NCBI GenBank assembly: GCA_030637655.1
Contig: DAOWGI010000092.1
Span: 26,161-90,160 of the forward strand
DNA length: 64,000 nucleotides
Direction of reading: 5' to 3'
Source of the DNA: a candidate division FCPU426 bacterium
GTDB taxonomy: Bacteria; Oederibacteriota; JAAXVQ01; JAUVAV01
Each line of letters starts with the position of its first letter. Position 1 is the stretch's first letter. Positions 13,623 to 51,769 of the stretch are shown piece by piece. A program made the position numbers and the translations under genes. The notes below the pieces were generated by a model. It ran no database searches. It was not told where the DNA came from and worked only from the letters and a program-made list of their open reading frames with translations.

Positions 13623-15803
13623 TTATTCTCCGATCGAGACGCCCTCAGCGCCTCCCATGCCCAGTTTAAATTCAGGAAAGGCCTTAAGATTTATACCTAA
13701 TCCTACTTCCATATTTCCGTCCGAGTAAACTTTGACACCGGCATTCATGGCCCAGCAGTGCAAGTCCCGGGAAAGACTGAGCGAGAAATTGGTGAATTCC
13801 TTTTTTACTGCATCGTACTGGAGCACACTGTTTAAAGAGACGCCGGTTCCGGGCCGGAAACCGGCACTCAAGGTGCCAAATAAGGAATGATCCCGAATCG
13901 CGGTCCCGATATAGGAATACGAACCACTTATGGTCAGATTCCAAATCTTGCCATACATACTGCTGGACAAATAGGCGGAGGTAATACGTTCCCGCACCCA
14001 GGAGTGTTGTCCTTGCCCGGTTATGGATATCTGCGGACTGATAGTAGCTCTGCCATTAAAGGTCAAGATATCCATACGCTCACGCCAATTGTGGTTCTCT
14101 TCAAAATCAAGCAAATTATATCCGGTTGAGGTTTGTAAGGTTATAAAATTGCCCATGTAATAGTCAGTGGCTAGTCCCACACGATGGGATGTGATCCCAG
14201 CCCTTGGCAGACTGATATCCGCCAGCATGGGAAACTTGCGCGTGAACTCATGCGAGATACGGGTCTGCAGCAAGTGCGTTGGTTTAGTATAACGGTAATT
14301 GACCCATTTGTTGGTTAAGGTGACACGCGTGCTGTACGCGGCGTCCAATTCAGTTTGCCGGGTATCATAATCAGCATAAAAGGTTTCACGATACACCCCG
14401 GCAATCGGCAAATTCAAAGAGCCGGACAGACTGGGCTGGGTCACCACCCACACCGGTAGTGTGAGGGTCTGAGTAAAACCGGGTCTGACACTAAATGTGT
14501 CGCGGTATCGATAACGAATAGCTTCTGTCCCAATACGATCATAGGCGCGGTTAACAGAAGAATTAAAATTAAAATAAATGGGATAACGCATGTCCGCGAC
14601 TTTGCGGGAAGATAGCGAAAAATTTACCGTCGGCAATTCGCGGCTGGAAGTATAGTATTGATCCCGTTCCGGATCCAGGCTTTCCACATCACTGGCTCTC
14701 ATACTAAAATAGTAACCATCTCCACGATGCGAATACGCGAGATAGGATTTCTGCTGGAAAGTATCCACCAGATCGTATGAAAATTCACGGTTAAAGGTGC
14801 GGTCTGAGAGATAGTCCAGATTGAGCTGCAAGAGATCCCGATCCGTAAATTCATGCCGGTTGGACATATTCGCGGTCCAGCGTTCAACACCCTGTTCCTT
14901 ATCATTAACATACATGGCCAAAAGATCACCAGCGCCTTTTCCGTAGAATTCATATTCCAGATGATGGTCCAGCCCCACACCCACACCTTTTTTCTCCATA
15001 AAATCCAGTAAGATGCCGCCATAACTTTCTTTCCAGAGGTAATAATTAAAACGCAGTTTGGTAAAAAAACCCTCAAAATCATTGTATCCAATCCGGATCG
15101 AGAATGGCGTCCGGTTGTCTTTTAAAGAACGGCGGATCCAGGGCAGATAAAAGAGCGGCGTGGTTCCCACATACACAATGGCATGGTGCGCGGTTAAAGA
15201 GTCATTGAGGATAATATCGATCTGATCGGCTGTCAGGTGATAATGCGGATGACGGGCATTGCAGGTGGTAAAACGCGCGGCGCGAATAGTTACCTTGTCT
15301 TCGCCCTCTTTTTCCACGGATGCCCCTTGATAATACCAAGGATGCGTGGCAAACAAAATTCCCTGCATTTTAGCGCTGCGGGTTTCCAAATCATAATCCA
15401 ATTTGACACACCTGATTTTCCGCTGTTTTTCAATCAGCACCACATTACCTCTGGCATGTACCCAATTGGTTTCCATATTTGCTTGCGCTTGGTCGGCATT
15501 TAAGGTCACATTGGCATACCACACGCGAACATTACCCACTGCGGTGAGCACGCTATTTGCTTCCTCGTAATGAAAACGATCCGCAAACAAGGTGACTTTA
15601 TCAGGCGCTAAAACCTTGCCAACAGCCGTGTTGGACTCCGCCTCCGGTATAACCGGCGCTTCAGCCTGCACGACTGTTGGCACCAACACCGGCAGTGCCA
15701 AAATCAGCAGTAAAAAAAGTGGCGTGCCGCTATGCGACACGCCGGTCATCAGTTGTCTCATGGTATGCTCTCGACCCGGATGGCAGCAGTCGCCCGGGGA
15801 CAT
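13623..15803 (-). CDS. lptD: LPS-assembly outer membrane protein LptD (OstA family)
   Basis: N-terminal OstA-like domain (FADRFHYEEANSVLTAVGNVRVWYANVTLNADQA) plus a large C-terminal beta-barrel. Signal peptide MRQLMTGVSHSGTPLFLLLILALPVLV. An alternative ATG is at 15761. The ATG at 15803 overlaps the TAA of the upstream ABC gene as TAATG. Confidence 0.8.
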   Translation of the reverse strand: MSPGDCCHPGREHTMRQLMTGVSHSGTPLFLLLILALPVLVPTVVQAEAPVIPEAESNTAVGKVLAPDKVTLFADRFHYEEANSVLTAVGNVRVWYANVTLNADQAQANMETNWVHARGNVVLIEKQRKIRCVKLDYDLETRSAKMQGILFATHPWYYQGASVEKEGEDKVTIRAARFTTCNARHPHYHLTADQIDIILNDSLTAHHAIVYVGTTPLFYLPWIRRSLKDNRTPFSIRIGYNDFEGFFTKLRFNYYLWKESYGGILLDFMEKKGVGVGLDHHLEYEFYGKGAGDLLAMYVNDKEQGVERWTANMSNRHEFTDRDLLQLNLDYLSDRTFNREFSYDLVDTFQQKSYLAYSHRGDGYYFSMRASDVESLDPERDQYYTSSRELPTVNFSLSSRKVADMRYPIYFNFNSSVNRAYDRIGTEAIRYRYRDTFSVRPGFTQTLTLPVWVVTQPSLSGSLNLPIAGVYRETFYADYDTRQTELDAAYSTRVTLTNKWVNYRYTKPTHLLQTRISHEFTRKFPMLADISLPRAGITSHRVGLATDYYMGNFITLQTSTGYNLLDFEENHNWRERMDILTFNGRATISPQISITGQGQHSWVRERITSAYLSSSMYGKIWNLTISGSYSYIGTAIRDHSLFGTLSAGFRPGTGVSLNSVLQYDAVKKEFTNFSLSLSRDLHCWAMNAGVKVYSDGNMEVGLGINLKAFPEFKLGMGGAEGVSIGE

Positions 15804-24124: not shown

Positions 24125-25531
24125 TTACAATATATATTTACTCAAATCCTGGTCTTTTAAAAGATTACTAATCCGCTCTTGCACATACTCAGGTGTAATC
24201 CGCACTGTATTTCCCGGCATTTCCGAAGCATTAAAACTAACCTCTTCCAAAACCCGTTCCATCACCGTATGCAAGCGCCGGGCTCCAATATCTTCCGAGA
24301 GTTGATTGGCACGATAAGCTACCTGAGCCAGTTCCTCAATGGCTTCCTGCGTAAAATCCAGTTCCACACCTTCGGTTTCCATCAACGCTTTGTACTGCTT
24401 GGTCAGGGCCTGACGCGGTTCAACCAGGATGCGTTTAAAATCTTCGGCCTTAAGCGAGGTCAATTCCGCCCGCAAAGGAAAACGGCCCTGCAGTTCGGGT
24501 ATCAAATCCGAAGGTTTGGAAACATGAAAGGCGCCGGCGGCAATAAACAGGATGTGGTGAGTTTTTACCTCTCCGTGCTTGGTATTCACTGTGGTCCCCT
24601 CAACGATGGGCAGGAGATCTCGTTGCACACCTTCGCGTGAAACGTCCGGACCGCGGTTTTGTTCCCGGCCGGCGACTTTATCCAATTCATCGATAAAAAC
24701 AATGCCCAGCTCTTCCACGCGTTTTACCGCCTCGGATTTTATTTCCGCCATATCCACCATCTTGTTTAACTCTTCCTGCACGATTTGACGGCGTGCTTCG
24801 GATACCTTGATTCTCCGTTGCCGTGGCGAACCGCCGCCACCGGGCATAATATTTTGCATCATGTCTTGAATGTTCATACCCAATTCTTCCATGTTGGCTC
24901 CGGAAAATATTTCCACCATGGGCATGGGTTGTTCTTTGGCTTCAAATTCCACGGCCTCATCATCCAATTCCCCGGCCAACAGCTGTGTTCTGACTTTTTC
25001 GCGCGCTTCGCTGTGCAACCGATCCTGCGCTTCGGTTTTCTCATACGTGACCGGAGTTGCAGCCATAGTACTTTTACGTTTGCCCAAGGGTGGAACCAAC
25101 AGATCGATTACCCGTTCGACGGCTTGTTCTTCCGCTTTTTCCCTAACCTGATTGCAGCGTTCTTCCCTCACCAAGTTTACCGCCTGGTGCACCAGATCCC
25201 GGATCATAGATTCAACATCCCGGCCAACATATCCGACTTCTGTGTATTTGGATGCCTCTACTTTTACAAAGGGCGCGCGCACTAAAGCGGCCAAACGCCG
25301 TGCCACCTCGGTTTTGCCCACCCCGGTGGGACCGATAAGAATAATATTCTTGGGCGTTACTTCCTCGCGCATGGACTCTGCCAAACGGCGGCGGCGCAGG
25401 CGATTGCGCAAGGCAATGGCCACAATCCGTTTGGCCTGAGCCTGTCCAATAATATATTTATCCAATTCCGCCACGATTTGTTGCGGTGTCAATTCCCATT
25501 CACTTTCGTTTTTCTTTTCTTTCTTTTTCAT
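24125..25531 (-). CDS. hslU: ATP-dependent protease ATPase subunit HslU
   Basis: Walker [10 protein letters not shown]. Full-length HslU with the intermediate I-domain. ATG start; the ATGA overlaps the hslV stop. Confidence 0.95.
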
Positions 25532-26067
25532 AACTCTTCCACCATAATTTCCTTATTGGTATAAATACAAATATCCGCCGCAATCAGCATAGCCTCCCTG
25601 GCAATCTCACTTACCGATAGTTGGGTATGTTGCAGCATAGCCCGGGCAGCGGCCAAAGCATACGCTCCTCCGGAGCCAATGGCCACAGCCGCCTCATCCG
25701 GTTCGATCACTTCTCCGGAACCGCTAATAACCAACGAGCGTTCCTTATCCGCGATAATTAACAGAGCATCCAAACGCCGCAAATATTTATCAGTCCTCCA
25801 ATCCTTGGCCAACTCTACTGCCGCGCGTGTCAGATTGCCATGATACTGCTGTAGTTTTTCTTCAAAGCGTTCAAACAGTGTGAAAGCATCCGCCGCGGAT
25901 CCGGCAAAGCCGGCCAGTATCTTTCTTTCACCCAGCCAACGAATCTTTTGGGCTTTCCGTTTCATCATAATATTGCCTAAAGTTACTTGTCCATCCCCGG
26001 CCAAGGCCATTTGATCCTTACGGCGCACGGATAAAATAGTAGTAGCACGAAATTGTTCATTTGTCAT
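25528..26067 (-). CDS. hslV: ATP-dependent protease subunit HslV (with short N-terminal extension before the Thr-Thr catalytic N-terminus)
   Basis: ...[31 protein letters not shown]... shows HslV homology. The ATG at 26067 was chosen. The track ORF extends to 26151. Confidence 0.88.
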
Positions 26068-26175
26068 AACCAATCTGCCTTTCTCTTTTTTAATCGTCAT
26101 TTTATGGGTTGTCATTCCCCAACCGGAAATGAATATTGAATGCCGGTACACTTTAGGCAGTCCGCATGCTTTCTT

Positions 26176-26354: not shown

Positions 26355-27218
26355 TCATGCCCGGGGATGTGCTTTGCGATAGACGGACTTCAGTTTTTCT
26401 GCTGTGACATGCGTATATATTTGCGTAGTGGTCAAATTGGCATGCCCCAACAACTCTTGCACTGAACGCAAATCCGCGCCATTATCCAGCAAATGCGTCG
26501 CAAACGAGTGGCGCAAACTGTGCGGTGACAAACCGCGTTTGGCGCCCACTTGCCGAATATATTTATCCGCCAAGCGTTCCACGCTTCGCGGTGTGAGTGT
26601 GCCACCGCGCGCGTTTCTAAACACGTTCGCTCCCATAGGCGACGGATCAGCTTGTAAATATCTCTGCAAAGCCGCAATGGCCGGTTCACCCAGTGGAACA
26701 ATGCGTTCCTTACGCCGTTTGCCCAGCACCCGAACCAATCCGCAGGCAAAATCAATAGCCTCCGGTTTTAGGGTTGTCAATTCGGACAACCGCATACCGG
26801 TTGAATACAAGGTCTCCAGAATCGCACAATCCCGTTTTCCTAAACGTGTTTGTGTATCCGGCGCTTGCAACAATGCCAGTATACTTTTCCGGTCAAAAAA
26901 ACGCGGTAGACGGTGTTCCCCTTTAGGTGTGCTTACCGTGGCAGCCGGATTCTCCAACACGATACCTTGCCGGAGCAAAAACCGATAAAACGTTCTCAAG
27001 CCGGCCAGGCGTCTGACAATGCCGGCTCGCGCACTCTGACGTTCGCTGAGTTTAGCTAAATAAGCACGTATGATACGAAATGTCACTTCGCGAGGAAATA
27101 ATTTACCGGCAAAAACCTGGAAATCACGCAAATCCTGACCATAGGCCCTGATGGTATGTACAGAGGCATTGCGACCGTGCTGTAAATAATCAAGAAACGC
27201 CTGTACGGCATCGTTCAC
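26355..27218 (-). CDS. xerC: tyrosine recombinase XerC/XerD family (CodV-like)
   Basis: Catalytic R...HxxR...Y motifs (HSLRHSFATHLL, LGHANLTTTQIYTHV). GTG start with GTGA overlap onto the upstream ORF. Conserved synteny with hslVU. Confidence 0.85.
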   Translation of the reverse strand: MNDAVQAFLDYLQHGRNASVHTIRAYGQDLRDFQVFAGKLFPREVTFRIIRAYLAKLSERQSARAGIVRRLAGLRTFYRFLLRQGIVLENPAATVSTPKGEHRLPRFFDRKSILALLQAPDTQTRLGKRDCAILETLYSTGMRLSELTTLKPEAIDFACGLVRVLGKRRKERIVPLGEPAIAALQRYLQADPSPMGANVFRNARGGTLTPRSVERLADKYIRQVGAKRGLSPHSLRHSFATHLLDNGADLRSVQELLGHANLTTTQIYTHVTAEKLKSVYRKAHPRA

Positions 27219-28363
27219 GAACTTGCCTCCGCCTGGAATTTTTCCAGCAGTCGCGAAAATTCATACAAAAATTTAATAATGGAAAAATTACCTTGGTAAT
27301 TCTTTTTACTAGTGGTAATTTTTTCGTTCAATTCCTTCAGGCCATGAACAAAAATAGTAGTCGGCAATTTTTTCTTCATCGCACTCAGACGAAAACCAGC
27401 CAGATCATTCATGCCCTTCTGTAATTTCTCATCGCGTTGATCCAAAGGCAGACTGTTTTTAGCTTTTAAGATCAACTCAAAATTAACCTGTCCTCCCGGC
27501 AACAATGATCCATCATCGCGTTTGTCCACCCCTTGGAAGAGTCCCGGGTGTTTGCTGCGGGCTTGTGCGAAACACTCCGTAAACATGAGATCAATCTCGG
27601 TGGACTCCAAATGCTTGGCACTGGTTTGTGACATGATACGATACAATTCTTCATAAATGGCCGTCAAACAGAGATCCAAAATCTCAACCGCAAACTGATC
27701 TTTTTTCTCATCTGCCTTAAGCTCCGGTTCCGGCGGTGGTGCGAAACGGGCACTGCGGTCATCGTGCAATTCTTCTTCACCGACCGATTCATACACGGAT
27801 ATTTTACCACGCTCATCGGAATTTTCCACCATTTCAGTAACCCACTTCACCGGAAATTTCATTTGTTCAGGACTGACTTGTTCGGAAAAATAACCCTCCC
27901 GTGGCTGTCCTCCCAAGAAAGTAAGATAATTCAACGCGTTGTTTATTTTTACTTCCAAATAACCGGTAAACCGTTTGCGCGCGAACAGACTGAGCAGTTG
28001 CTTGAAATTGATCAGTTTGGTTTTCAATCCACAGTGTGTGGGCTCAAAAATAAAGGTGCCCATAATCACGATCATCAGAAGTTTGGACGTTTCGTAAAAA
28101 CTGATCGTCCCTTCCTTTTCAGTTCGCAATTTGTTGAGCGCTTCACTCACGGTCATGATTTCGCGGCCATCAGGATAAAAGCGGCCGGCTTTGACACCTT
28201 TACCGCCCAGTAAAAAAATAATATCCTGAGAATCTTCATAGCGCACATCCAAATAACTGGCCACCCTACTCTGACTTTCCGCCAGGATTTTATCCAGTTT
28301 CGCTGTTGCCAAAGGAATGTTTTCCACCACCGTGCGCATGGCTGGGAGTTTCAAATGATTCAT
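27215..28363 (-). CDS. hypothetical protein, no confident family (weak resemblance of two segments to DUF4388-type motifs)
   Basis: A 382-aa ORF with an ATG start whose ATGA overlaps the topA stop. It is co-oriented with, and tightly packed between, topA and xerC. It has no recognisable catalytic motifs. The central region is acidic. Confidence 0.5.
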   Translation of the reverse strand: MNHLKLPAMRTVVENIPLATAKLDKILAESQSRVASYLDVRYEDSQDIIFLLGGKGVKAGRFYPDGREIMTVSEALNKLRTEKEGTISFYETSKLLMIVIMGTFIFEPTHCGLKTKLINFKQLLSLFARKRFTGYLEVKINNALNYLTFLGGQPREGYFSEQVSPEQMKFPVKWVTEMVENSDERGKISVYESVGEEELHDDRSARFAPPPEPELKADEKKDQFAVEILDLCLTAIYEELYRIMSQTSAKHLESTEIDLMFTECFAQARSKHPGLFQGVDKRDDGSLLPGGQVNFELILKAKNSLPLDQRDEKLQKGMNDLAGFRLSAMKKKLPTTIFVHGLKELNEKITTSKKNYQGNFSIIKFLYEFSRLLEKFQAEASS

Positions 28364-30669
28364 GCGGTTTCACCCTCCCCGGATTCTGCCGGCTGTTCCA
28401 AGCGTGTGTAGTCACATCCTTCCACCGGACATACCAAGGCATCCCCCGTACGTTTGGAATGTTTGCGCGCCAAATATGGATTGTCGCATTTGGGACATTT
28501 TTCCAATACCGGTTTATTCCAGGAAACAAAATTGCATTTGGGATAACGACTGCAACCAAAAAACATACGTCCCCGCCGGCTTCGGCGTTCGATAACTTGG
28601 CCGTCACAATCCGGCAAAGGACAATCCAAACCAATCTCTTTGTTGATGGATTTGGTAAATTTGCATTCCGGATACTTGCTGCAGGCTAAAAATTTACCAA
28701 ATCTACTGTATTTAATATGCAAAGGACTTCCACAGGTTTCACATTTCTCATCAATGGTTTCTTCGTCTTTGACCACAATATTGCCTTGCTCATCCTTGCC
28801 CATGGGCTTGGTATTCCGGCAGGCCGGATACTTGGAGCAGGCAATAAATTTTCCGTGCCTCCCCCACTTCACCGTCAATTTGGCGCCGCATTTTTCACAA
28901 ATCTCATCCAATTCCACTTCCACTTCTGATTTGATATCCTGCATATGCTTTTGCGCCTTGTCCAAATCCTGCTGGAATGATTGGTAAAACTTTTTTAAGA
29001 CTGCGATCCACTTGGCGTTGCCGGTTTCAATCTCATCCAGCTCATTTTCCATGGAAGCGGTAAATTCGATATCCAAAATATCCGGAAAACTTTCCACCAG
29101 CAGATCATTAATAATAATGCCTATTTCTACCGGAGCAAACCTTCCGTTCTTGCGTTCAATGTAATTACGGACCAAAATTGTACTAATAATCGGCGCGTAC
29201 GTACTCGGCCGCCCAATATTATTTTCCTCCAATGCCTTCACCAAGGTAGCATCATTGTACCGTGGCGGCGGTTGGGTAAATTTCTGTTCAGGCCGAATTT
29301 CCTGCATCCGCACTGCTTGTTGCTCTTCCAAGAGCGGCAATAACTTATCGTCGTCCTTGGAATTCGTTTCAGCTTCTCCGTTGTTGACCGGTTCTTCGCT
29401 TTCAATATATACGGACATAAAGCCTTTAAACTTCATAATAGAACCGCCGGCCCGCAAGGTATACGCTCCGGCTTGAATATCCACCAGGGTGGCGTCAAAA
29501 CGGGCCGGGGTCATTTGCGAAGCCACAAAACGCCGCCAAATGAGCCGGTATAACTTAAATTGATCAGGTGTCAGGTGCTTTTTAAGCGCATCGGGTGAAT
29601 TTTCTTCCAAAATATACGTCGGACGAATCGCTTCGTGCGCATCCTGCACCTGCCGCTTGGCTTTGTATTTCGGTGGTTTGGCCGGCATGTATTCTGCGCC
29701 GTACGTCTGAGTAATAAAATCACGCGCTTGCGCCTGCGCTTCCTCATTGACCCGCACCGAGTCCGTGCGCATATAAGTAATCAAACCGATTGGCCCTTCG
29801 CTGCCAATATCCAACCCTTCGTACAACTGCTGAGCAACCATCATGGTTTTCTTACCCGTAAACCGCAGCTTATTGGCAGCTTCTTGTTGGAGCTTACTGG
29901 TAATAAAAGGAGGCGCCGGCATCCGCCGCTGCTCTTTTTTTTCAACCTTAACAACTTGATAGGATGCTTGCTCTAAATCCTCAACCACCTGCCGGCTTTC
30001 CGCTTCATTGCACAGCTCCAGTTTGGCATGGTCTTTTTGCGTTACCAGGGCCGTAAAACTTTCCTTGGCCTCTGTTTCCAGGGAAACCTCGATCTTCCAA
30101 TATTCCCGCGGCTCAAAGTTCTCGATTTCGCGCTCCCGGTTGACCACTAAGCGAACGGCTACGGACTGTACGCGCCCAGCGGAAAGTCCCTTGCGAACTT
30201 TTTTCCACAGTAATGGCGACAACGAATAGCCCACAATACGGTCCAGGATTCTTCGTGCCTGTTGTGCGTTGACCATATTGTCATCTATGGCTTGCGGCTG
30301 CTCAATGGCAAGGCCTACCGCCTTCTTGGTAATCTCATTGAACATGATCCGAAACACCTTCTTGTTCTTACTCTCAAGCTCATGTTTCAAATGCCAGGCA
30401 ATGGCTTCCCCTTCCCGATCCGGGTCAGGAGCCAAGTAAATGTTATCCGCAGAGCCGGCCAGACGTTTCAGTTCTTTTAATATCTTGGAACGGGAACGAA
30501 TGGTTATATAATGTGGTTTAAACTCATTCTCAAGATCTACCCCCAATTTACTCTTGGGCAAATCACGCACATGCCCCATGGAAGCTTTGACCAAAAACTT
30601 TTTCCCTAAAAACTTATTAATTGTTTTCGCTTTTGCCGGTGATTCAACAATAACCAGACTTTTTCGCAT
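28360..30669 (-). CDS. topA: DNA topoisomerase I
   Basis: TOPRIM N-terminus (LVIVESPAKAKTI). Several C-terminal Cys4 zinc-ribbon motifs (CEKCGAKL...CSKYPAC, CETCGSPL...). Confidence 0.95.
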   Translation of the reverse strand: MRKSLVIVESPAKAKTINKFLGKKFLVKASMGHVRDLPKSKLGVDLENEFKPHYITIRSRSKILKELKRLAGSADNIYLAPDPDREGEAIAWHLKHELESKNKKVFRIMFNEITKKAVGLAIEQPQAIDDNMVNAQQARRILDRIVGYSLSPLLWKKVRKGLSAGRVQSVAVRLVVNREREIENFEPREYWKIEVSLETEAKESFTALVTQKDHAKLELCNEAESRQVVEDLEQASYQVVKVEKKEQRRMPAPPFITSKLQQEAANKLRFTGKKTMMVAQQLYEGLDIGSEGPIGLITYMRTDSVRVNEEAQAQARDFITQTYGAEYMPAKPPKYKAKRQVQDAHEAIRPTYILEENSPDALKKHLTPDQFKLYRLIWRRFVASQMTPARFDATLVDIQAGAYTLRAGGSIMKFKGFMSVYIESEEPVNNGEAETNSKDDDKLLPLLEEQQAVRMQEIRPEQKFTQPPPRYNDATLVKALEENNIGRPSTYAPIISTILVRNYIERKNGRFAPVEIGIIINDLLVESFPDILDIEFTASMENELDEIETGNAKWIAVLKKFYQSFQQDLDKAQKHMQDIKSEVEVELDEICEKCGAKLTVKWGRHGKFIACSKYPACRNTKPMGKDEQGNIVVKDEETIDEKCETCGSPLHIKYSRFGKFLACSKYPECKFTKSINKEIGLDCPLPDCDGQVIERRSRRGRMFFGCSRYPKCNFVSWNKPVLEKCPKCDNPYLARKHSKRTGDALVCPVEGCDYTRLEQPAESGEGETA

Positions 30670-30707
30670 AATATGTTGCCCATTCCTTATTTTGATACTG
30701 AATTATA

Positions 30708-30736
30708 ATTTAAGCATAGGCCGGTTTTAAAGTCAA
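30708..30736 (-). promoter_or_regulatory. putative sigma70-type promoter for topA (-35 TTGACT, 17-nt spacer, -10 TTAAAT)
   Basis: Read on the minus strand about 40-65 nt upstream of the topA ATG. It is a sequence match only. Confidence 0.3.
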
Positions 30737-30792: not shown

Positions 30793-31578
30793 TTAAAACC
30801 GCAAAAGCAAGGTGCCGAGTAAGCTGCCGGATTTGATGGTTAATCTGGATATCTCTCCCAAAGCATTCCCTTCAAACCAACGGAATTGATAAAGAAAATC
30901 CAATCCCCACCCGGCTGAATCCCGGTACTCCATTTTCAAGCATCCCTGCCATTGTGTGCCCACTCCGGCTTCCTGGTATTCTGTGACCAGAAAATCATCC
31001 TCAATAAAATACAGACTCTTATAAAAATCCACTACTGCCCGCGGAGCGTACACTACGGCTATAGAGGCAGTAACATCCTGCGCCTGTAGAAATTCCCACT
31101 CCACTAATCCCGTAATTGACTGTAACTGATAATACATGAAACGATAGCCGGTACGCCCGGAATAATGCTCCAGAGTCCGACTTGAAAACTGCAGACCAAC
31201 AGCCATGGCTCCCCAAAACTGATATTTACCTTCCAACACTATGCTCTCTTGACCGGCCCAAAAAAAGGGATCTATGGAAATGGTATCCAGATTTGTCCCC
31301 TTCCATTCCCCGCTCACATTCCACTTCGAAGTGCCGGCCTGTAAGCGTGCAAACCAAGGCCTTTGAGCATACGTTATTTGCACTGACGCCAAAGTACTCT
31401 GCAACATAGTATGATAGTATTCTCCCTGCACGTCCTCCACCATGACTTTGACCGTATAATACTCCATGCCGGCCCCGGCTGTTACCTCAGCCCGGCTTGA
31501 GGCGGAAAAAAGCATGCTCAATAGCACAACCGTTACATGCAGTCCGGATTTTAGGGCCTTTATCCTACGTTTATGCAT
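30793..31578 (-). CDS. outer-membrane beta-barrel protein (porin-like), signal peptide, C-terminal Phe
   Basis: The ATG at 31578 gives the signal peptide MHKRRIKALKSGLHVTVVLLSMLFSASSRA. Alternating amphipathic beta-strands end in ...LLLRF. The longer track ORF would overlap dprA by 124 nt. Confidence 0.55.
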   Translation of the reverse strand: MHKRRIKALKSGLHVTVVLLSMLFSASSRAEVTAGAGMEYYTVKVMVEDVQGEYYHTMLQSTLASVQITYAQRPWFARLQAGTSKWNVSGEWKGTNLDTISIDPFFWAGQESIVLEGKYQFWGAMAVGLQFSSRTLEHYSGRTGYRFMYYQLQSITGLVEWEFLQAQDVTASIAVVYAPRAVVDFYKSLYFIEDDFLVTEYQEAGVGTQWQGCLKMEYRDSAGWGLDFLYQFRWFEGNALGEISRLTIKSGSLLGTLLLRF

Positions 31579-32687
31579 TTTTCCCCCACCCAATGATAGA
31601 ATTGACCAGGCGCACATTGTACCATACCTTGCAGCTCCAAAGACAACAGACTCTCCAGCAGTGCCGGCAAAGGCAGTTGGCATTGAATAAGCAATTGATC
31701 AATATGCAGCGCTCCGCTTTCCAACGCTTGACAAATCTTCTGGTTTTCCGGGGATAGTAATGGGATGGCTTTTTCGCGCTGGTTGGGTTGCATTGAACTT
31801 GTATGCTTCTCGTTGATTTTGGGCAACTCCTGCAATATATCTTCTACCTGAGTAACCAATTTGGCGCCATCTTGAATCAACGCATGCGTGCCCTGCGAAA
31901 GCGACGACTGAAAAGAACCCGGAACAGCAAACACGTCCTTTCCTTGTTCGCTTGCCCACCGCGCGGTAATCAGCGCTCCGGAACGAACACGTGCCTCAAC
32001 CACTAATACTCCTTGGGACAAACCGCTGATCACGCGATTGCGTCTGGGAAAAAGCTGTGGTACTGCGGGTTGGGCCATAGGAAATTCGGATATGACGGCA
32101 CCCTGCCGCGCGATGCTGTGCCATAGTTCTTTGTTTTCCGGAGGATACACATGGGAAAGACCGTGTGCTACCACGGCCAATGTGCGCCCATTATTTTGCA
32201 AGGCCGTCATATGCGCCTGCGTATCAATCCCTAAAGCCAGGCCGGAAACAATAGTCAGACCCTGTCGGACTAAATCTCTGACCAATAACTTCGTTGCCGT
32301 AATACCATAAGCACTGGGCCGTCGGCTGCCCACCACAGCCAAGGCCTTGCTGTCCTCCGGCAGCCAATTCCCCAGAACATAGAGCACTGGCGGAGAAAAA
32401 TCAATGGAACGCAATACCGCAGGATATGTTTTTTCCTCTAAGGTCACAATACGAGCGCCACACGCCCGGCTTTTTTTCAATTCTTCCTCAGCCACTTGCT
32501 CCCAGGCTGTGCCGCAAATCCGTTCTGCCAGTTCCGGACTAATATGTCGCATCGCGGCCAAATACCGGCTCGGTTGCGCAAAAACCTTGCCGGCTGAACC
32601 AAACTGTTCCGCCAAGCGCCGGGACAAGACCGGCCCTACTCCGGCAATACTATTTAAAGCAATCCAAGCATATGAATTTTTAGTCAT
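31560..32687 (-). CDS. dprA: DNA processing protein DprA/Smf
   Basis: Rossmann-like DprA core (LAVVGSRRPSAYG...ALGIDTQAHM) with ATG start. Confidence 0.85.
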   Translation of the reverse strand: MTKNSYAWIALNSIAGVGPVLSRRLAEQFGSAGKVFAQPSRYLAAMRHISPELAERICGTAWEQVAEEELKKSRACGARIVTLEEKTYPAVLRSIDFSPPVLYVLGNWLPEDSKALAVVGSRRPSAYGITATKLLVRDLVRQGLTIVSGLALGIDTQAHMTALQNNGRTLAVVAHGLSHVYPPENKELWHSIARQGAVISEFPMAQPAVPQLFPRRNRVISGLSQGVLVVEARVRSGALITARWASEQGKDVFAVPGSFQSSLSQGTHALIQDGAKLVTQVEDILQELPKINEKHTSSMQPNQREKAIPLLSPENQKICQALESGALHIDQLLIQCQLPLPALLESLLSLELQGMVQCAPGQFYHWVGEKCINVG

Positions 32688-32692
32688 GGGAA

Positions 32693-34837
32693 TTAGCCGA
32701 AAAAAATTTCAATCCGAGATCCATTTTTGAGTGGTGTGGTAAATGCCGCTTTTTGTCCATCCACCATCAATTGTATGGTCCCGGCATTGGGAGGTGGTGT
32801 GAGATCCAGACCCTCCAAAATATGTGACAACGTCGGAGAATAACTTTCTTTTTTTTCTATCACAATCTCAGCATTTTCAGGAACTAAGGCATCAGGTGTT
32901 GCTCCCTCACCATTGATGGTTATCCTCTTGCCGCCGCTATCCAACATTTTGGTTTTTCCATTTACGGCGACTGAAATCTGATTGGACGGTGGAAGTTCAA
33001 TTCCTAAATCGCGCATGCGCAGTTCAACCATATCCGTCTGTTTCCATTCAATCCGGTCATTGGGACGAGGACAATAGTCAATAGTTACGTTTTGCCGGTT
33101 GGCGAGAATAACTGTTCCGTATTCCCGGTGAACTTGCTTTTGTTCTCCATTCACAAAAAACCGGACCTGTTTCGAAGTGGCGGCAACCGCGGATAATTCC
33201 GGCATCAATTCTCCCAAGGTTTTTTGTGAGCCCCAGTTCAACTCAGCCCGATCCGGGATTTCCGCCTCTGGATCAACCGGTTGATCTTGCTGCCTCAGCA
33301 CCGGTTCCAACTCCAGGTTGTGTCCATTACAGGTACACCAAAAAGGACCCCCTGGACGAGGAACATCTACCGCCTTTAAACGCGCGGCCCGTCCATTCAC
33401 AGCAGCCGTCAGTTCAATGTCATCACCAGCCTGAACTACGGTATCCAACGTGGCTGGTTTGGAATTGAGTTTTATTTCCGCCAAGGTTCCGAGGGTCCCG
33501 GGAACGGTCATCAGACGGCCGGCCAAAGTATAGGTTATAGCCTGGCCAGGCCGCGGATGCAGTGATTTCATCTCTTTGCCGGCTGAGAGCAGCGCTTCAA
33601 AAACCGTCGGCTTACTACTTAAGGCTAAAAGCTGAATCGGTTGTTTATTAACATAAGCAGTAATAAAACGGAGTCCTTTGCCACGCGAAGCCAGCAACGC
33701 GATTCCCAAGGGGGTTATCCCCTCAATGCCTTTGAGTGTGGGTGTGGGGTTTTCCAGTTCAGGGATGGTTTCCGGTCCCCGACATCCGACCCGTGACGGA
33801 TCCAGTTTTAGAGCTTCTGCCACGCTTGGTCCCAAGCCCGGTGTCGCGCTGCCGCCGCCTACCATGACCACTGCCCGAGGAACAGCTCCGTTTAATTTTA
33901 TAATGGTATCGGCAATAGCTTTGGCCAGTTTTTTCACATCAGGTTGGAGGTTCTGCCGGATTTCTGCGGCAGAAACATTCATTTTTTGGCCAAGAATGGT
34001 GGTAAAGCCCAGCCGGGCATCCCCGGCTGTTTCCAATGCGCGTTTTACTTTCTCAGCCTCATTGAATTCCAAAAGGTAATGTTCGCACAAGCGCTCGGTA
34101 ATTTCGTCACCGGCGTGTGTGACCATGGCATAAGCAAAAACCGAGCCATTGCGAGTAATGGCAATATCCGAGGTTCCCGCGCCCACATCCACCAGGGCAA
34201 TATTCATTCTCCTTAGATCATTCGGAATGGTCGCTTCAATCGCCGCAATAGGCTCCAAGGTCAAACTGCGTGCGGCCAGATTCGCACGTCGCAAAACCGC
34301 CATGAGCGAATCCACCACCTGACGCGGCAGAAAGGTAGCCAACACTTCAACTGACATTTCCTGCCCTTGATGTCCCACTAAATCATCCAACACTTCATTG
34401 TCCAGCCTAAAACGAATAGTGGAAAACCCAACACAATGCAATTGATGTTTGTTACCCTGGGAGTGTAAAGCTGTTTGCGCGGCCCGGGCGGCAGACAACT
34501 CCAAGGCCAGAACATCCTCTCGCGTAATTTCGGTCCTGGCAGGGAAATAGCGTTTTTGTTCGGCGGATTCGGTTAATAAAGCGCGACCCGCGGCAGCCAC
34601 GGCTGCTTCGGTCAATGTAATTCCCAGCTCTGCTTCCAACACCGCTTTGACCTGAGACACAACTTTGGCCACTGCTTCCACGCGATGCACCTGTCCACCC
34701 AGCATCGCACGATCAGGGTGTTCGTGTACACACGCAGCCAATACTTTCAGGCCCTGCTTGTGTTGCTTGACCACCACACCGGCAACTTTTCTGGTTCCAA
34801 TGTCCAAAATAAAAATAGTATCGTGCTTAGGACTCAC
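32693..34837 (-). CDS. actin-like (ASKHA; FtsA/EutJ/PilM-type) ATPase domain fused to 4-5 tandem ThiS/MoaD-like beta-grasp repeats; unknown function
   Basis: The N-terminal ~370 aa carry the phosphate-1 motif (FILDIGTRKVAGVVV) and phosphate-2 motif (ALVDVGAGTSDIAI). The C-terminal ~340 aa contain repeated modules of the form phi-x-phi-x-VNG...L..GD-IE-phi. Examples are ISVAVNGKTKML...AEIVIEK and IQLMVDGQKAAF...SRIEIFFG. GTG start with GTGA overlap onto the cheC stop. Confidence 0.6.
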   Translation of the reverse strand: MSPKHDTIFILDIGTRKVAGVVVKQHKQGLKVLAACVHEHPDRAMLGGQVHRVEAVAKVVSQVKAVLEAELGITLTEAAVAAAGRALLTESAEQKRYFPARTEITREDVLALELSAARAAQTALHSQGNKHQLHCVGFSTIRFRLDNEVLDDLVGHQGQEMSVEVLATFLPRQVVDSLMAVLRRANLAARSLTLEPIAAIEATIPNDLRRMNIALVDVGAGTSDIAITRNGSVFAYAMVTHAGDEITERLCEHYLLEFNEAEKVKRALETAGDARLGFTTILGQKMNVSAAEIRQNLQPDVKKLAKAIADTIIKLNGAVPRAVVMVGGGSATPGLGPSVAEALKLDPSRVGCRGPETIPELENPTPTLKGIEGITPLGIALLASRGKGLRFITAYVNKQPIQLLALSSKPTVFEALLSAGKEMKSLHPRPGQAITYTLAGRLMTVPGTLGTLAEIKLNSKPATLDTVVQAGDDIELTAAVNGRAARLKAVDVPRPGGPFWCTCNGHNLELEPVLRQQDQPVDPEAEIPDRAELNWGSQKTLGELMPELSAVAATSKQVRFFVNGEQKQVHREYGTVILANRQNVTIDYCPRPNDRIEWKQTDMVELRMRDLGIELPPSNQISVAVNGKTKMLDSGGKRITINGEGATPDALVPENAEIVIEKKESYSPTLSHILEGLDLTPPPNAGTIQLMVDGQKAAFTTPLKNGSRIEIFFG

Positions 34838-47213: not shown

Positions 47214-47708
47214 CTACTGATACCCATACGTTGTGTAAGATATTCCGCTCGTATCAGTGCACGAACTATTGACCCAAATTCGTCCGGTGTTGGATTGCTC
47301 AGGTCCATCATAACGCCATCCAGTACCATAAGTGTTTGGGCATCCCAGGCTGGGTTCATCGGTGAATGATTTATTCGTCACTTCATTTCCTGCCGGACTT
47401 TTTTCAGGATCAGCCGGATAGGTAACCAAGACCTTTGGCATTGCCGGCAAATAATCGCCAAAACCATACCCTGGTGTTTTATCGGAGACATCCAAGGTTG
47501 TGGGCCAGACACCTTCATGATCACCATAATAAATCGAGATGGCTGCTTTGATGGCACTAATATTGGATTTGGTGGCAGCCTCCCGGGATTTTTCCTGCCA
47601 TTCCTGAATATACGGATAGGCCAACGCGGCCAAAATACCTAAGATCGCCACAAACATGGCCCACTCCAAATACGTAAACCCCTGTTGCAATTTAAATACG
47701 TTCCGCAT
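47214..47708 (-). CDS. pilA: type IV pilin (prepilin with class III signal peptide)
   Basis: MRNVFKLQQG / FTYLEWAMFVAILGILAALA shows a 10-aa leader, a G|F cleavage site, Glu at +5 and a hydrophobic helix. AGGAG SD. Confidence 0.8.
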   Translation of the reverse strand: MRNVFKLQQGFTYLEWAMFVAILGILAALAYPYIQEWQEKSREAATKSNISAIKAAISIYYGDHEGVWPTTLDVSDKTPGYGFGDYLPAMPKVLVTYPADPEKSPAGNEVTNKSFTDEPSLGCPNTYGTGWRYDGPEQSNTGRIWVNSSCTDTSGISYTTYGYQ

Positions 47709-50707: not shown

Positions 50708-51769
50708 TTACCAATGCGGATCAAAGCAGGAGCCGGTATGAGTGATCTGCTTCTGCCTGGTTCCGTCAATGTTCATCACCCAAACATCGGATTGCACGAG
50801 TTGATCTCCGGATCCTACCTGACCTTCCTTGGTTTTTTCCATAATGCAGGCCATGTATTTGGCGGTCGGTGAAAACGCGGGTCCGGACAATTCCGCGGCA
50901 AAATCCTGAGGAGTCAATGGATAGACCTCAAAATTAATACTGAACCGTTTGGACATAACTATTATTATTTTATCCAATTCAAAGGCAATCAAAGCGCCAT
51001 CATAATTCCATATTACAGTACCCAGATGATACGGCACTTTCTGAAAAGGTTTCATAAGATCCGCTTCCATTCTGCCGTCTACCCGAATAGTGCCGATATG
51101 TATCACATGATCATGCTTGGTTGGACCTGCGCCGGCTAGAAATTTCATATCCGGAGATAATGAATGCACCTCGGTCATAAAACTGGTTTTGGGCAAACGA
51201 ATGGTTTCCACCGGTTTTCCGGTTTCAACACTATATCCATACAAGATAGTGGGAAAATCCATTTCCTGAAAATAGATAACACTGCTGTCCGGCTTCCAGC
51301 TTATTCTCATCTTCCTGGCTTTGATTTTTTTATCCGTCACCAGAGTCCGGGTATCTGTTCCATCTGCATTGACGACCATAATGGATACCCTGTCCCCTAA
51401 CGGTTGATCTTTCGGATACTGAAAAAAAGCTATTTTGGTATGCGGCAGATTCCAGGAAGGCCGGCACTTGTAGCCGGAGGTGTCGCTAATTTGCTTTGCA
51501 TTTTGTCCGTTTGGCTCAATGGTATGAATTTGCGTTTTTTCATTGACTACCGCAACATACACGATGCGCGAACTGTCATCCACGCCGTCCATGTGCCTGG
51601 TAATACCAATCTTTTTCATATAGGTTTTGCGTTTGACGTCACTCACACTTTTGATTTTTTTACGAAATTGCTCCTGGATTTTTTTTCCGCACCCGGAGGC
51701 TAAAAAACCCATACAGACAATCATAGCAATAGTAAAAAGGTATTTGCATTTTAACCTTGCTCGGAACAT
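50708..51769 (-). CDS. TolB-like / PD40 beta-propeller lipoprotein
   Basis: Lipobox signal peptide (MIVCMGFLASGC). Repeated PD40-like segments (SWNLPHTKIAFF, ISWKPDSSVIYF, SLSPDMKFLA, AFSPTAKYMA). AGGAGG SD. Confidence 0.55.
   Translation of the reverse strand: MFRARLKCKYLFTIAMIVCMGFLASGCGKKIQEQFRKKIKSVSDVKRKTYMKKIGITRHMDGVDDSSRIVYVAVVNEKTQIHTIEPNGQNAKQISDTSGYKCRPSWNLPHTKIAFFQYPKDQPLGDRVSIMVVNADGTDTRTLVTDKKIKARKMRISWKPDSSVIYFQEMDFPTILYGYSVETGKPVETIRLPKTSFMTEVHSLSPDMKFLAGAGPTKHDHVIHIGTIRVDGRMEADLMKPFQKVPYHLGTVIWNYDGALIAFELDKIIIVMSKRFSINFEVYPLTPQDFAAELSGPAFSPTAKYMACIMEKTKEGQVGSGDQLVQSDVWVMNIDGTRQKQITHTGSCFDPHW

Follow-up and report, generated by a model that had tools for sequence, protein, structure and literature searches.

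A conserved protein with PATAN-like modules in the trmFO position between topA and xerC of candidate division FCPU426 genomes

Between topA and xerC, the analysed DNA (a stretch of 64,000 nt, referred to here as the window) carries the gene of ORF382, a soluble cytoplasmic protein without detectable catalytic motif. The gene is a fixed operon member between its two neighbours, and it was found in the slot that is held by trmFO elsewhere, as the sequence-only reading had proposed. Profile comparisons suggest that the N-terminal half of the protein is a tandem duplicate of an alpha/beta module of ~90 residues, remotely homologous to the DUF4388/PATAN domain. This domain assignment is considered highly probable, together with the view that ORF382 is an adaptor and not an enzyme. 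TopA or XerC can be named as its partner only tentatively, and the best explanation as a whole, partner included, is offered with the same reserve.

The coding sequence (382 aa plus a TGA stop) was located from the ORF list and the sequence at 27215..28363 on the minus strand and starts with ATG. Its start codon overlaps the stop codon of topA in an ATGA junction (28360..28363, minus strand; 'tcat' on the plus strand), and its stop codon overlaps the GTG start of xerC in a GTGA junction (27215..27218, minus strand; 'tcac' on the plus strand); both overlaps had been read before and were confirmed in the sequence. Direct reading also located a GGAGG Shine-Dalgarno sequence 10 nt 5' of the ORF382 ATG, within the 3' end of topA (28374..28378, minus strand), and another one 7 nt 5' of the xerC GTG, within the 3' end of ORF382 (27226..27230, minus strand). 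The upstream operon partner, topA (28360..30669, minus strand), encodes a DNA topoisomerase I of 769 aa with the Pfam domains Toprim, Topoisom_bac and three copies of Zn_ribbon_Top1. The downstream partner (26355..27218, minus strand) encodes a XerC-type tyrosine recombinase of 287 aa (Pfam Phage_integrase and Phage_int_SAM_1), and is followed after a gap of 203 nt by hslV (listed at 25528..26151, minus strand; Pfam Proteasome) and hslU (24125..25531, minus strand; Pfam AAA_2/ClpB_D2-small). Since hslV homologues are 178-180 aa long, the true start of this gene probably lies near 26067. Together with dprA (31560..32687, confirmed by Pfam), these named families follow each other on one strand in the order dprA-topA-[slot]-xerC-hslV-hslU, which recurs in 12 species genomes. 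In the 123-nt gap 5' of topA, a consensus scan gave a sigma-70-like promoter match (TTTAAA-18-TATAAT; 30702..30731, minus strand) that may mark where a transcription unit of topA, ORF382 and xerC begins; in total, the promoter and terminator scans returned no more sites than in shuffled sequence.

Searches with the ORF382 protein gave no match at E<=0.1 in Pfam and NCBIfam and none in PADLOC. Its homologues form 36 clusters of full-length proteins with 41-100% identity. They are of similar length throughout and share 26 invariant alignment columns, and the orthologues are confined to MAGs of the candidate division FCPU426 type, an uncultured phylum. The order topA-ORF382-xerC-hslV-hslU was present in 12 out of the 12 species genomes found, and xerC and hslV likewise follow in the most divergent orthologue (P0037). 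The 4-nt overlap with topA is kept in 11 of these 12 genomes, which bears out the earlier view of ORF382 as an integral member of the operon, and the ORF382/xerC junction spans -8 to +18 nt among the relatives. This conservation refutes the idea that ORF382 is a spurious ORF or a recent insertion of a mobile or defence element. Apart from the absent annotation nothing speaks for that reading, and it is given practically no credence against the homologue clusters of near-equal length, the single fixed locus, the gene's own Shine-Dalgarno sequence, the confident predicted fold and the empty PADLOC result.

The usual occupant of the slot could be recognized from three outgroup contigs, located via TopA homologues. 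In all three, the gene directly after topA encodes a GIDA-family protein of 435-445 aa, and in the two outgroup contigs with DNA the slot protein scored above the cut-off of the NCBIfam equivalog TrmFO (TIGR00137 / NF003739), with 486-665 bits. Contig L027 has the order DprA-TopA-TrmFO-ArgB and shares its upstream order, CheA-CheC-FtsA-like-DprA-TopA, with the window, while the JGI contig reads DprA-TopA-GIDA (445 aa)-ArgB-ArgD-ArgF. Contig L028, from the Acidobacteriota, has the order DprA-TopA-TrmFO-XerC, with a 6-nt gap between topA and trmFO and a 4-nt overlap between trmFO and xerC. To judge from contigs of equal length, TopA and TrmFO appear to lie on common contigs in further outgroups too. 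In Bacillus subtilis, the corresponding gene string is smf-topA-gid-codV-clpQ-clpY. The assignment of ORF382 to a trmFO slot is thus supported, because the nearest outgroups share the upstream order and have TrmFO directly after topA. Among the best 120 relatives of the TrmFO of the nearest outgroup, none could be attributed to FCPU426. The order dprA-topA-trmFO-xerC-hslVU is among the more widely conserved bacterial gene orders, and its FCPU426 version, in which an unrelated gene has cleanly taken the place of one member throughout the candidate phylum, represents a well-defined natural experiment.

The likeness of ORF382 to TrmFO (Gid), the folate/FAD-dependent tRNA m5U54 methyltransferase, is one of position only, without similarity in sequence or fold. 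With a limit as lenient as E<=10, all 36 family members remained without a GIDA (PF01134), FAD or Rossmann match, and hhalign of the family profile against the two slot TrmFOs returned a probability of 0.1%. The AF2 models of ORF382 contain no Rossmann fold, no FAD domain and no nucleotide-binding motif, and the alignment of the 36 clusters shows neither a conserved GxGxxG nor a catalytic Cys. The sole Gly-rich stretch, GGK[GAP]VKAG (residues 53-60), departs from the GxGxxG pattern and is located in a predicted beta-hairpin. The sequence-only reading had described an unrelated protein without FAD/Rossmann motif; the hhalign result agrees with the former statement, the Pfam and NCBIfam searches and the structure model with the latter, and the profile searches identified neither a diverged TrmFO nor another well-known family. 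A diverged TrmFO is therefore refuted at the level of both sequence and fold. Even when a non-orthologous replacement performing tRNA U54 methylation is included, this explanation has a negligible probability; position alone, exactly the place of TrmFO in the outgroups, would speak for it.

The full-length AF2 model (pLDDT 86; N-terminal model pLDDT 92, pTM 0.85) predicts two modules with the topology beta-alpha-beta-beta-beta(-beta)-alpha-beta, followed by a helical domain. Module N1 (residues 1-105; 28049..28363, minus strand), a DUF4388/PATAN-like alpha/beta unit defined by pLDDT >90 and the hhalign comparison with P0090, includes the conserved GGK-VKAGR hairpin and a hydrophobic helix (residues 94-105) that is strongly conserved. 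Module N2 (residues 106-195; 27779..28048, minus strand), likewise DUF4388/PATAN-like by a sub-threshold Pfam match and by hhalign against P0097, carries the motif F-T-G-Y-L-E-L...L-N-Y-L-T-F..G. An acidic linker (residues 196-216; 27716..27778, minus strand) is predicted to be disordered, with pLDDT <50 at residues 195-216, and varies in length and sequence in the alignment, with a median net charge of -5. The remaining part (residues 217-382; 27218..27715, minus strand) is all-helical, with AF2 helices at 217-381, and this domain of ~165 residues carries no family annotation, belongs to no Pfam family and lacks a homologue of solved structure. No member of the family matched Response_reg (REC), the C-terminal domain being all-helical instead, and no ORF382 domain shows a clear net positive charge suggestive of DNA binding.

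The two internal segments in which a mutual similarity had been noticed were found at residues 48-69 and 132-152, and this similarity proved to be part of the tandem duplication. Based on a diverse alignment, N1 and N2 matched each other by hhalign with 97% probability (E 8.7e-11, 84 columns), whereas close orthologues alone gave a signal of only P=0.025. The proposed likeness to DUF4388 was also borne out by profile evidence, though it is sub-threshold in Pfam. The protein of the window scored 12.5 bits against PF14332 (E 0.16, residues 118-157), below the gathering cut-off of 25, and 12 of the 36 members matched this model at E<=10, the best with E 0.0025. The family profile retrieved two proteins with DUF4388 domains, P0090 (DUF4388 26.8 bits; library-wide E 3.6e-5) and P0097 (73 bits; E 8.3e-5), to which hhalign assigned probabilities of 96% (E 6e-9, query residues 33-145) and 92% (E 5e-7), respectively. 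DUF4388 is carried by 18 of the 55 N-type matches, with a best E of 2.6e-20. Nothing meaningful came from single-sequence and profile searches of the PDB, for which the queries were the complete family, its N-terminal region, the C-type proteins and one genuine DUF4388 protein.

Each ORF382 module can be aligned with PATAN/DUF4388 (PF14332; PatA of Anabaena, PixE/PixG of Synechocystis) at hhalign probabilities of 92-96%. They share a pattern of a helix, a 'hydrophobic-G-[YF]-L-x-[LV]' strand 1, strands 2-3 ending in G, a further helix and a final strand, and both look non-catalytic and occur fused to signalling domains. Unlike the PATAN/DUF4388 proteins, however, ORF382 carries its module sub-threshold, duplicated in tandem and packed as a single unit, in a topA/xerC context and not in chemosensory or pilus operons. 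Its model shows no alpha-clip insertion and ends in a different C-terminal helical domain, and it lacks the REC receiver of PatA-type response regulators, which combine PATAN with REC.

The closest relatives beyond the orthologue group are proteins of ~320-335 aa (P0038, P0040, P0041, P0046 and others) from MAGs labelled Candidatus Dependentiae and Edwardsbacteria. This ~330-aa family, all annotated as hypothetical and about 20-28% identical among themselves, has the overall architecture of ORF382: its members cover profile positions 4-192 (E 6e-26 to 1e-13), and their C-terminal part matches the ORF382 helical domain with an hhalign probability of 94.5%. They differ in being ~50 residues shorter; the long acidic linker is absent and the C-domain is reduced in length. 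Their genes occur in variable and unrelated contexts, such as after V-ATPase B/D genes or after a spermine-synthase-domain gene, so the module has no general tie to DNA enzymes. In two other relatives the module is fused to a signalling domain, namely Pkinase (Ser/Thr kinase) in P0078 and a GGDEF fragment in P0087. The helical domain was found alone in 36 'C-type' matches (P0059, P0061, P0064, P0070, P0072 and others), which share no common Pfam family and gave no solved relative in the PDB search. They match the profile at ~220-355 (E 6e-12 to 1e-3) and have the motif K-x-P-x-[LV]-[FL]-x...D-G-S-L...L-R-L-x-A in common with ORF382. Their N-terminal parts differ, with low-complexity or coiled-coil sequence and a D-x-x-x-I-F-G motif in place of PATAN-like modules. 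The N-type and C-type parts were also considered as separate neighbouring genes elsewhere, and this was rejected: two genes without annotation lie next to the C-type gene P0072, and neither is related to the N-terminal module. The tandem PATAN-like module, the ~330-aa paralogue family and the occurrence of the helical domain in at least two other architectures are all missed by current domain databases.

PATAN domains serve in protein-protein interaction and as output modules. The architecture shared by the relatives and the kinase and GGDEF fusions point to a regulatory or adaptor role. As PATAN is an interaction module and relatives are fused to signalling domains, ORF382 is best regarded as a probable adaptor or regulator and not an enzyme, one that would bind partner proteins. 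Through the overlapping stop and start codons, each with its Shine-Dalgarno sequence, it would be made jointly with TopA and XerC, and because of this co-production one of these two would be the likeliest specific partner. ORF382 might, for example, act at a membrane or division site, where it would position or gate the resolution of chromosome dimers by XerC or the relaxation of DNA by TopA. PatA is reported to interact with the divisome (PMC7380572).

Position is weak evidence of function here, because trmFO overlaps xerC by 4 nt likewise in the Acidobacteriota contig L028. This overlap also weakens the tie to recombination, topology or proteolysis that the sequence-only reading had suggested for ORF382, since TrmFO has no known link to any of these three processes. 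ORF382 may be a positional hitchhiker, an adaptor or regulator with PATAN-like modules that acts on a partner from outside the operon and about whose function its neighbours are uninformative. In this scenario, loss or relocation of trmFO would have freed a slot with high, constitutive expression in an old string of housekeeping genes, and ORF382 would have occupied it. Such an origin is possible, if doubtful, and is consistent with the equally tight junctions of the unrelated TrmFO in the outgroup slot, with the unrelated contexts of the paralogues and with the remainder of the gene string, a housekeeping mix (arg, aro, dnaK/dnaJ, pil, che) that lies entirely on one strand. It sits less well with the fact that the gene was never found off the topA-xerC junction despite divergence to 41-49% identity, with the ATGA overlap nearly always kept, since long persistence at this junction predicts, in general, a functional association.

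To our knowledge, the targets of all characterised PATAN proteins are type IV pili or cell differentiation, not DNA. A canonical role of this kind, with ORF382 as a regulator of type IV pili, competence or the chemosensory system that binds PilB, PilC or PilM-like proteins and modulates pilus assembly or DNA uptake, is judged unlikely. It could draw on Synechocystis, where PilB1 and PilC are bound by a PATAN domain that by itself suffices for output, although binding of the pilus motor by PATAN is known only from this organism (bioRxiv 10.1101/2021.06.11.447907). Two PATAN-domain proteins of Myxococcus, MXAN_3211 and MXAN_4965, are also listed with the candidates that were considered in work on MglA, SgmX, FrzS and SopA, regulators of T4aP (bioRxiv 10.1101/2024.03.11.584430). 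In the window, cheA, cheC, a 714-aa PilM/FtsA-like gene and dprA lie just upstream on the same strand, and pilQ, pilO, pilN, pilM and a PilT-like ATPase gene are found on this strand at a distance of 13-21 kb. Contig L027, however, has the same CheA-CheC-FtsA-like-DprA-TopA string with TrmFO and not ORF382, so the che/pil neighbourhood predates ORF382 and is independent of it. Further points against a pilus function are the missing REC domain, the tight coupling with topA and xerC but with no pil or che gene, and the aro and pta genes that part the pil cluster from the topA-ORF382-xerC block.

The preferred reading, an adaptor working with TopA or XerC, can be sharpened to a dedicated accessory subunit of these enzymes, in which PATAN modules would have been recruited to position or license DNA relaxation and dimer resolution. 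This version is rather improbable; its sites of action could be, e.g., the septum or a DNA-uptake pilus next to DprA. If true, PATAN would for the first time be linked to DNA transactions, and Xer or Topo I would gain an accessory factor of a new kind. Any joint action of ORF382 with TopA or XerC would give two universal DNA enzymes a hitherto unrecognized accessory factor, and the poorly understood PATAN domain a new task. If there is none, the locus is a clear warning that even translationally coupled positions in this string need not share a function, as is already the case for TrmFO.

Between dprA and topA, the window also contains an ORF of 296 aa without annotation (30793-31683). Judged by eye from its signal-peptide-like N-terminus and its final residue F, it may encode an outer-membrane protein.

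The ORF382 gene occupies positions 27215..28363 of the window on the minus strand, starts with ATG and encodes 382 amino acids. As the sequence-only reading had stated, both of its ends overlap the adjoining genes. Read on the coding strand, the topA stop and the ORF382 start share ATGA at 28360-28363 (-), and the TGA of ORF382 and the GTG start of xerC share GTGA at 27215-27218 (-). A GGAGG motif is present 10 nt 5' of the ORF382 ATG, inside topA, and another 7 nt 5' of the xerC GTG, inside ORF382. The neighbours identified in the window by Pfam are hslU, hslV, xerC (Phage_integrase and SAM-like N-domain), topA (Toprim, Topoisom_bac and three Zn ribbons) and dprA, with argB, argD and argF downstream of the block. 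Upstream of dprA, on the same strand, a 714-aa FtsA/PilM-like protein, cheC and cheA are encoded, followed still further upstream by pilQ, pilO, pilN, pilM and a PilT-like ATPase.

Among 5.8 billion proteins searched, 36 clusters of ORF382 homologues were found. Nearly all are 374-389 aa long, with a query coverage of 98-100% and 41-100% identity; one is a 313-aa fragment. Named sources were candidate division FCPU426 or unclassified 'bacterium' MAGs. The alignment contains 26 invariant columns, concentrated at residues 91-152. When one genome per GTDB species was scanned, the gene was found in 12 species, whose labels are FCPU426 except for one 'Firestonebacteria' and one 'Goldiibacteriota', and the order topA-ORF-xerC-hslV-hslU was present in all 12. 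The most divergent orthologue, P0037, has this same order, and three long contigs carry the extended order CheA-CheC-FtsA-like-DprA-hyp-TopA-ORF-XerC-HslV-HslU-ArgB-ArgD-ArgF. Of the 12 species, 11 retain the 4-nt topA/ORF overlap, and the ORF/xerC junction varies between -8 and +18 nt, whereas the xerC-hslV gap is looser (16-322 nt, apart from one 3.6-kb insertion), so the tight unit is topA-ORF-xerC. The insertion, of ~3.6 kb, lies at 8009-11640 of contig L016 from one FCPU426-type genome.

For comparison of the slot directly after topA, TopA homologues were retrieved from the nearest lineages outside the FCPU426 group (55-57% identity) and from Acidobacteriota (about 50%), and three contexts were read. 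These were CheB-CheA-CheC-FtsA-like(725 aa)-DprA-TopA-GIDA(435 aa)-ArgB on outgroup contig L027, DprA-TopA-GIDA(445 aa)-ArgB-ArgD-ArgF-ArgG on a JGI contig (3300047160) and DprA-TopA-GIDA(438 aa)-XerC on Vicinamibacteria contig L028. Two of these GIDA proteins, those with a DNA sequence, matched the NCBIfam equivalog TrmFO well over cut-offs. In the closest relatives, where the upstream synteny is shared, the gene after topA is therefore trmFO, and in FCPU426 its place is taken by ORF382, which bears out the earlier placement of ORF382 in the trmFO slot. The Firmicutes order used for that placement, smf-topA-gid-codV-clpQ-clpY, agrees with the Bacillus subtilis map. Contigs of matching length also suggest that TopA and TrmFO lie together in further outgroup lineages. 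The replacement of trmFO in this ancient gene string is clean and phylum-wide, a neat case that is now documented. In the nearest outgroups (L027 9451-11615; JGI 3300047160 contig) trmFO is followed directly by argB-argD-argF without intervening xerC-hslVU, whereas in FCPU426 the slot and argB are separated by xerC-hslVU; besides the exchange of its slot occupant, the block has thus been rearranged.

ORF382 as a TrmFO was ruled out. Even at E<=10 the models for GIDA and TrmFO matched no member of its family, profile comparison of the family with the two outgroup TrmFOs gave a probability of 0.1%, and the fold predicted by AlphaFold2 has no Rossmann domain, in agreement with the earlier description of an unrelated protein without an FAD/Rossmann motif.

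The full-length AlphaFold2 model, built on the family alignment, was confident (pLDDT 86, pTM 0.68), and the N-terminal 195 residues modelled alone reached pLDDT 92 and pTM 0.85. Two alpha/beta modules are predicted at residues ~8-105 (N1) and 106-195 (N2), each with the order strand, helix, three- or four-stranded meander, helix, strand. They are followed by a disordered acidic linker (residues 196-216, median charge -5) and a predicted all-helical domain (residues 217-381). With a diverse alignment, hhalign matched N1 to N2 over 84 columns (probability 97%, E 8.7e-11), whereas close orthologues alone gave only P=0.025; judged by profile comparison, N1 and N2 are a true duplication. The mutual resemblance of two internal segments seen earlier was thereby upheld, these being the equivalent strand 2-3 hairpins of N1 and N2.

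No Pfam domain was assigned among the 36 clusters; DUF4388, which is the PATAN domain (bioRxiv 10.1101/2021.06.11.447907), was the sole recurrent weak match (12 of 36 members, best E 0.0025), and the window protein reached 12.5 bits where the cut-off is 25. When 1.84 billion representative proteins were searched exhaustively with the family profile, 96 matches were obtained, only four of them full-length orthologues. About 55 covered the N-terminal tandem only, with DUF4388 in 18 of them (best E 2.6e-20) and archaeal DUF2226 in 4. Two matches exceeded Pfam's DUF4388 threshold: P0097, with two domains and 73 bits, which aligned with N2 at 92% hhalign probability, and P0090, with 26.8 bits, which aligned with N1 at 96%. 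The N-terminal half therefore consists of two divergent PATAN-type modules in tandem, and the weak DUF4388 likeness noted from the sequence, sub-threshold in Pfam, gains profile support. On these alignments the homology is at superfamily level and not membership by Pfam's criterion.

The best partial matches (E 6e-26 to 1e-13) were ~320-335-aa proteins of uncultured lineages labelled Dependentiae and Edwardsbacteria, every one annotated as hypothetical. At 94.5% probability the C-terminal part of these proteins is homologous to the helical domain of ORF382, which makes the complete architecture older than the FCPU426 orthologue group. Gene context varies among them, with V-type ATPase B and D genes or a spermine-synthase-domain gene preceding, or a PP2C phosphatase and a Ser/Thr kinase nearby. 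The helical domain is found by itself as well, in 36 C-terminal-only matches (36 clusters), behind low-complexity or coiled-coil N-termini. These proteins (P0059, P0061, P0064, P0070 and P0072; e.g. L023 8001-8948) share an N-terminal D-x-x-x-I-F-G motif. No common Pfam family and no PDB relative were found for them, and the helical domain is therefore an unannotated domain family. In P0078 (545 aa) the tandem PATAN-like module is fused C-terminally to a Ser/Thr protein kinase, and in P0087 (240 aa) a tandem-module match occurs with a GGDEF fragment; these fusions are hints that the tandem module may act in signalling.

Those relatives of the ORF382 modules that have been characterised function in protein interaction and output. 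In Synechocystis the PATAN domain by itself binds PilB1 and the N-terminus of PilC, is located at the membrane and causes a reversal of phototaxis (bioRxiv 10.1101/2021.06.11.447907), a divisome interaction is reported for PatA (PMC7380572), and a study of T4aP regulators lists two Myxococcus PATAN-domain proteins among its candidates (bioRxiv 10.1101/2024.03.11.584430). Since ORF382 has no catalytic signature, its modules are of the interaction type and relatives of these modules are fused to signalling enzymes, it probably serves as an adaptor or regulator that binds partner proteins. The PATAN/DUF4388 family is the closest known kind, and ORF382 is presumed to work like it. It differs from this family in scoring under the Pfam threshold, in its tandem duplicate, in the added unannotated helical domain and in its location in a DNA-enzyme operon, and from PatA-type regulators in having no REC domain. 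ORF382 defines unannotated domains, and nothing so far indicates an unusual mechanism.

TopA or XerC could be the partner of this adaptor, a tentative proposal made because the translational coupling is phylum-wide. The operon argument is tempered by L028, where TrmFO in the same slot overlaps xerC by 4 nt, and by L027, where the entire che-FtsA-like-dprA-topA string exists without ORF382; neither neighbourhood was therefore built around ORF382. An equally tentative proposal is that ORF382 is a positional hitchhiker with its partner outside the operon. Somewhat less likely as partner is the apparatus for type IV pili or competence, for which its standing as canonical target of PATAN and the proximity of dprA and pil/che genes speak.

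Several other genes of the window were also noted. An unannotated ORF between dprA and topA (30793-31683, -, 296 aa) had no match in Pfam or NCBIfam; its signal-peptide-like N-terminus and final residue F fit an outer-membrane beta-barrel. Its homologues measure 254-256 aa; in one relative the homologue is tandemly duplicated (L004 5913-7480), and in another it is followed by an inserted 2-phosphosulfolactate-phosphatase-family gene. The FtsA/PilM/MreB-like actin-fold protein of 709-725 aa (window 32693-34837 (-); L001 2433-4565; L002 3322-5457; L027 3674-5851) is always encoded between cheC and dprA, in FCPU426 and the nearest outgroup alike. It has a ~350-residue C-terminal extension with a weak ThiS/beta-grasp-like match at its end and no NCBIfam equivalog, and its architecture is unusual. 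Three more sizeable ORFs of 726, 353 and 164 aa (13623-15803, 50708-51769 and 47214-47708, all -) had no Pfam match under the thresholds applied. From 24125 to 63952 essentially all long ORFs lie on the minus strand, over at least 40 kb, and this unusually long co-directional housekeeping string holds arg, hslVU, topA, che, aro, pil, dnaK/dnaJ/hrcA and glycogen genes.
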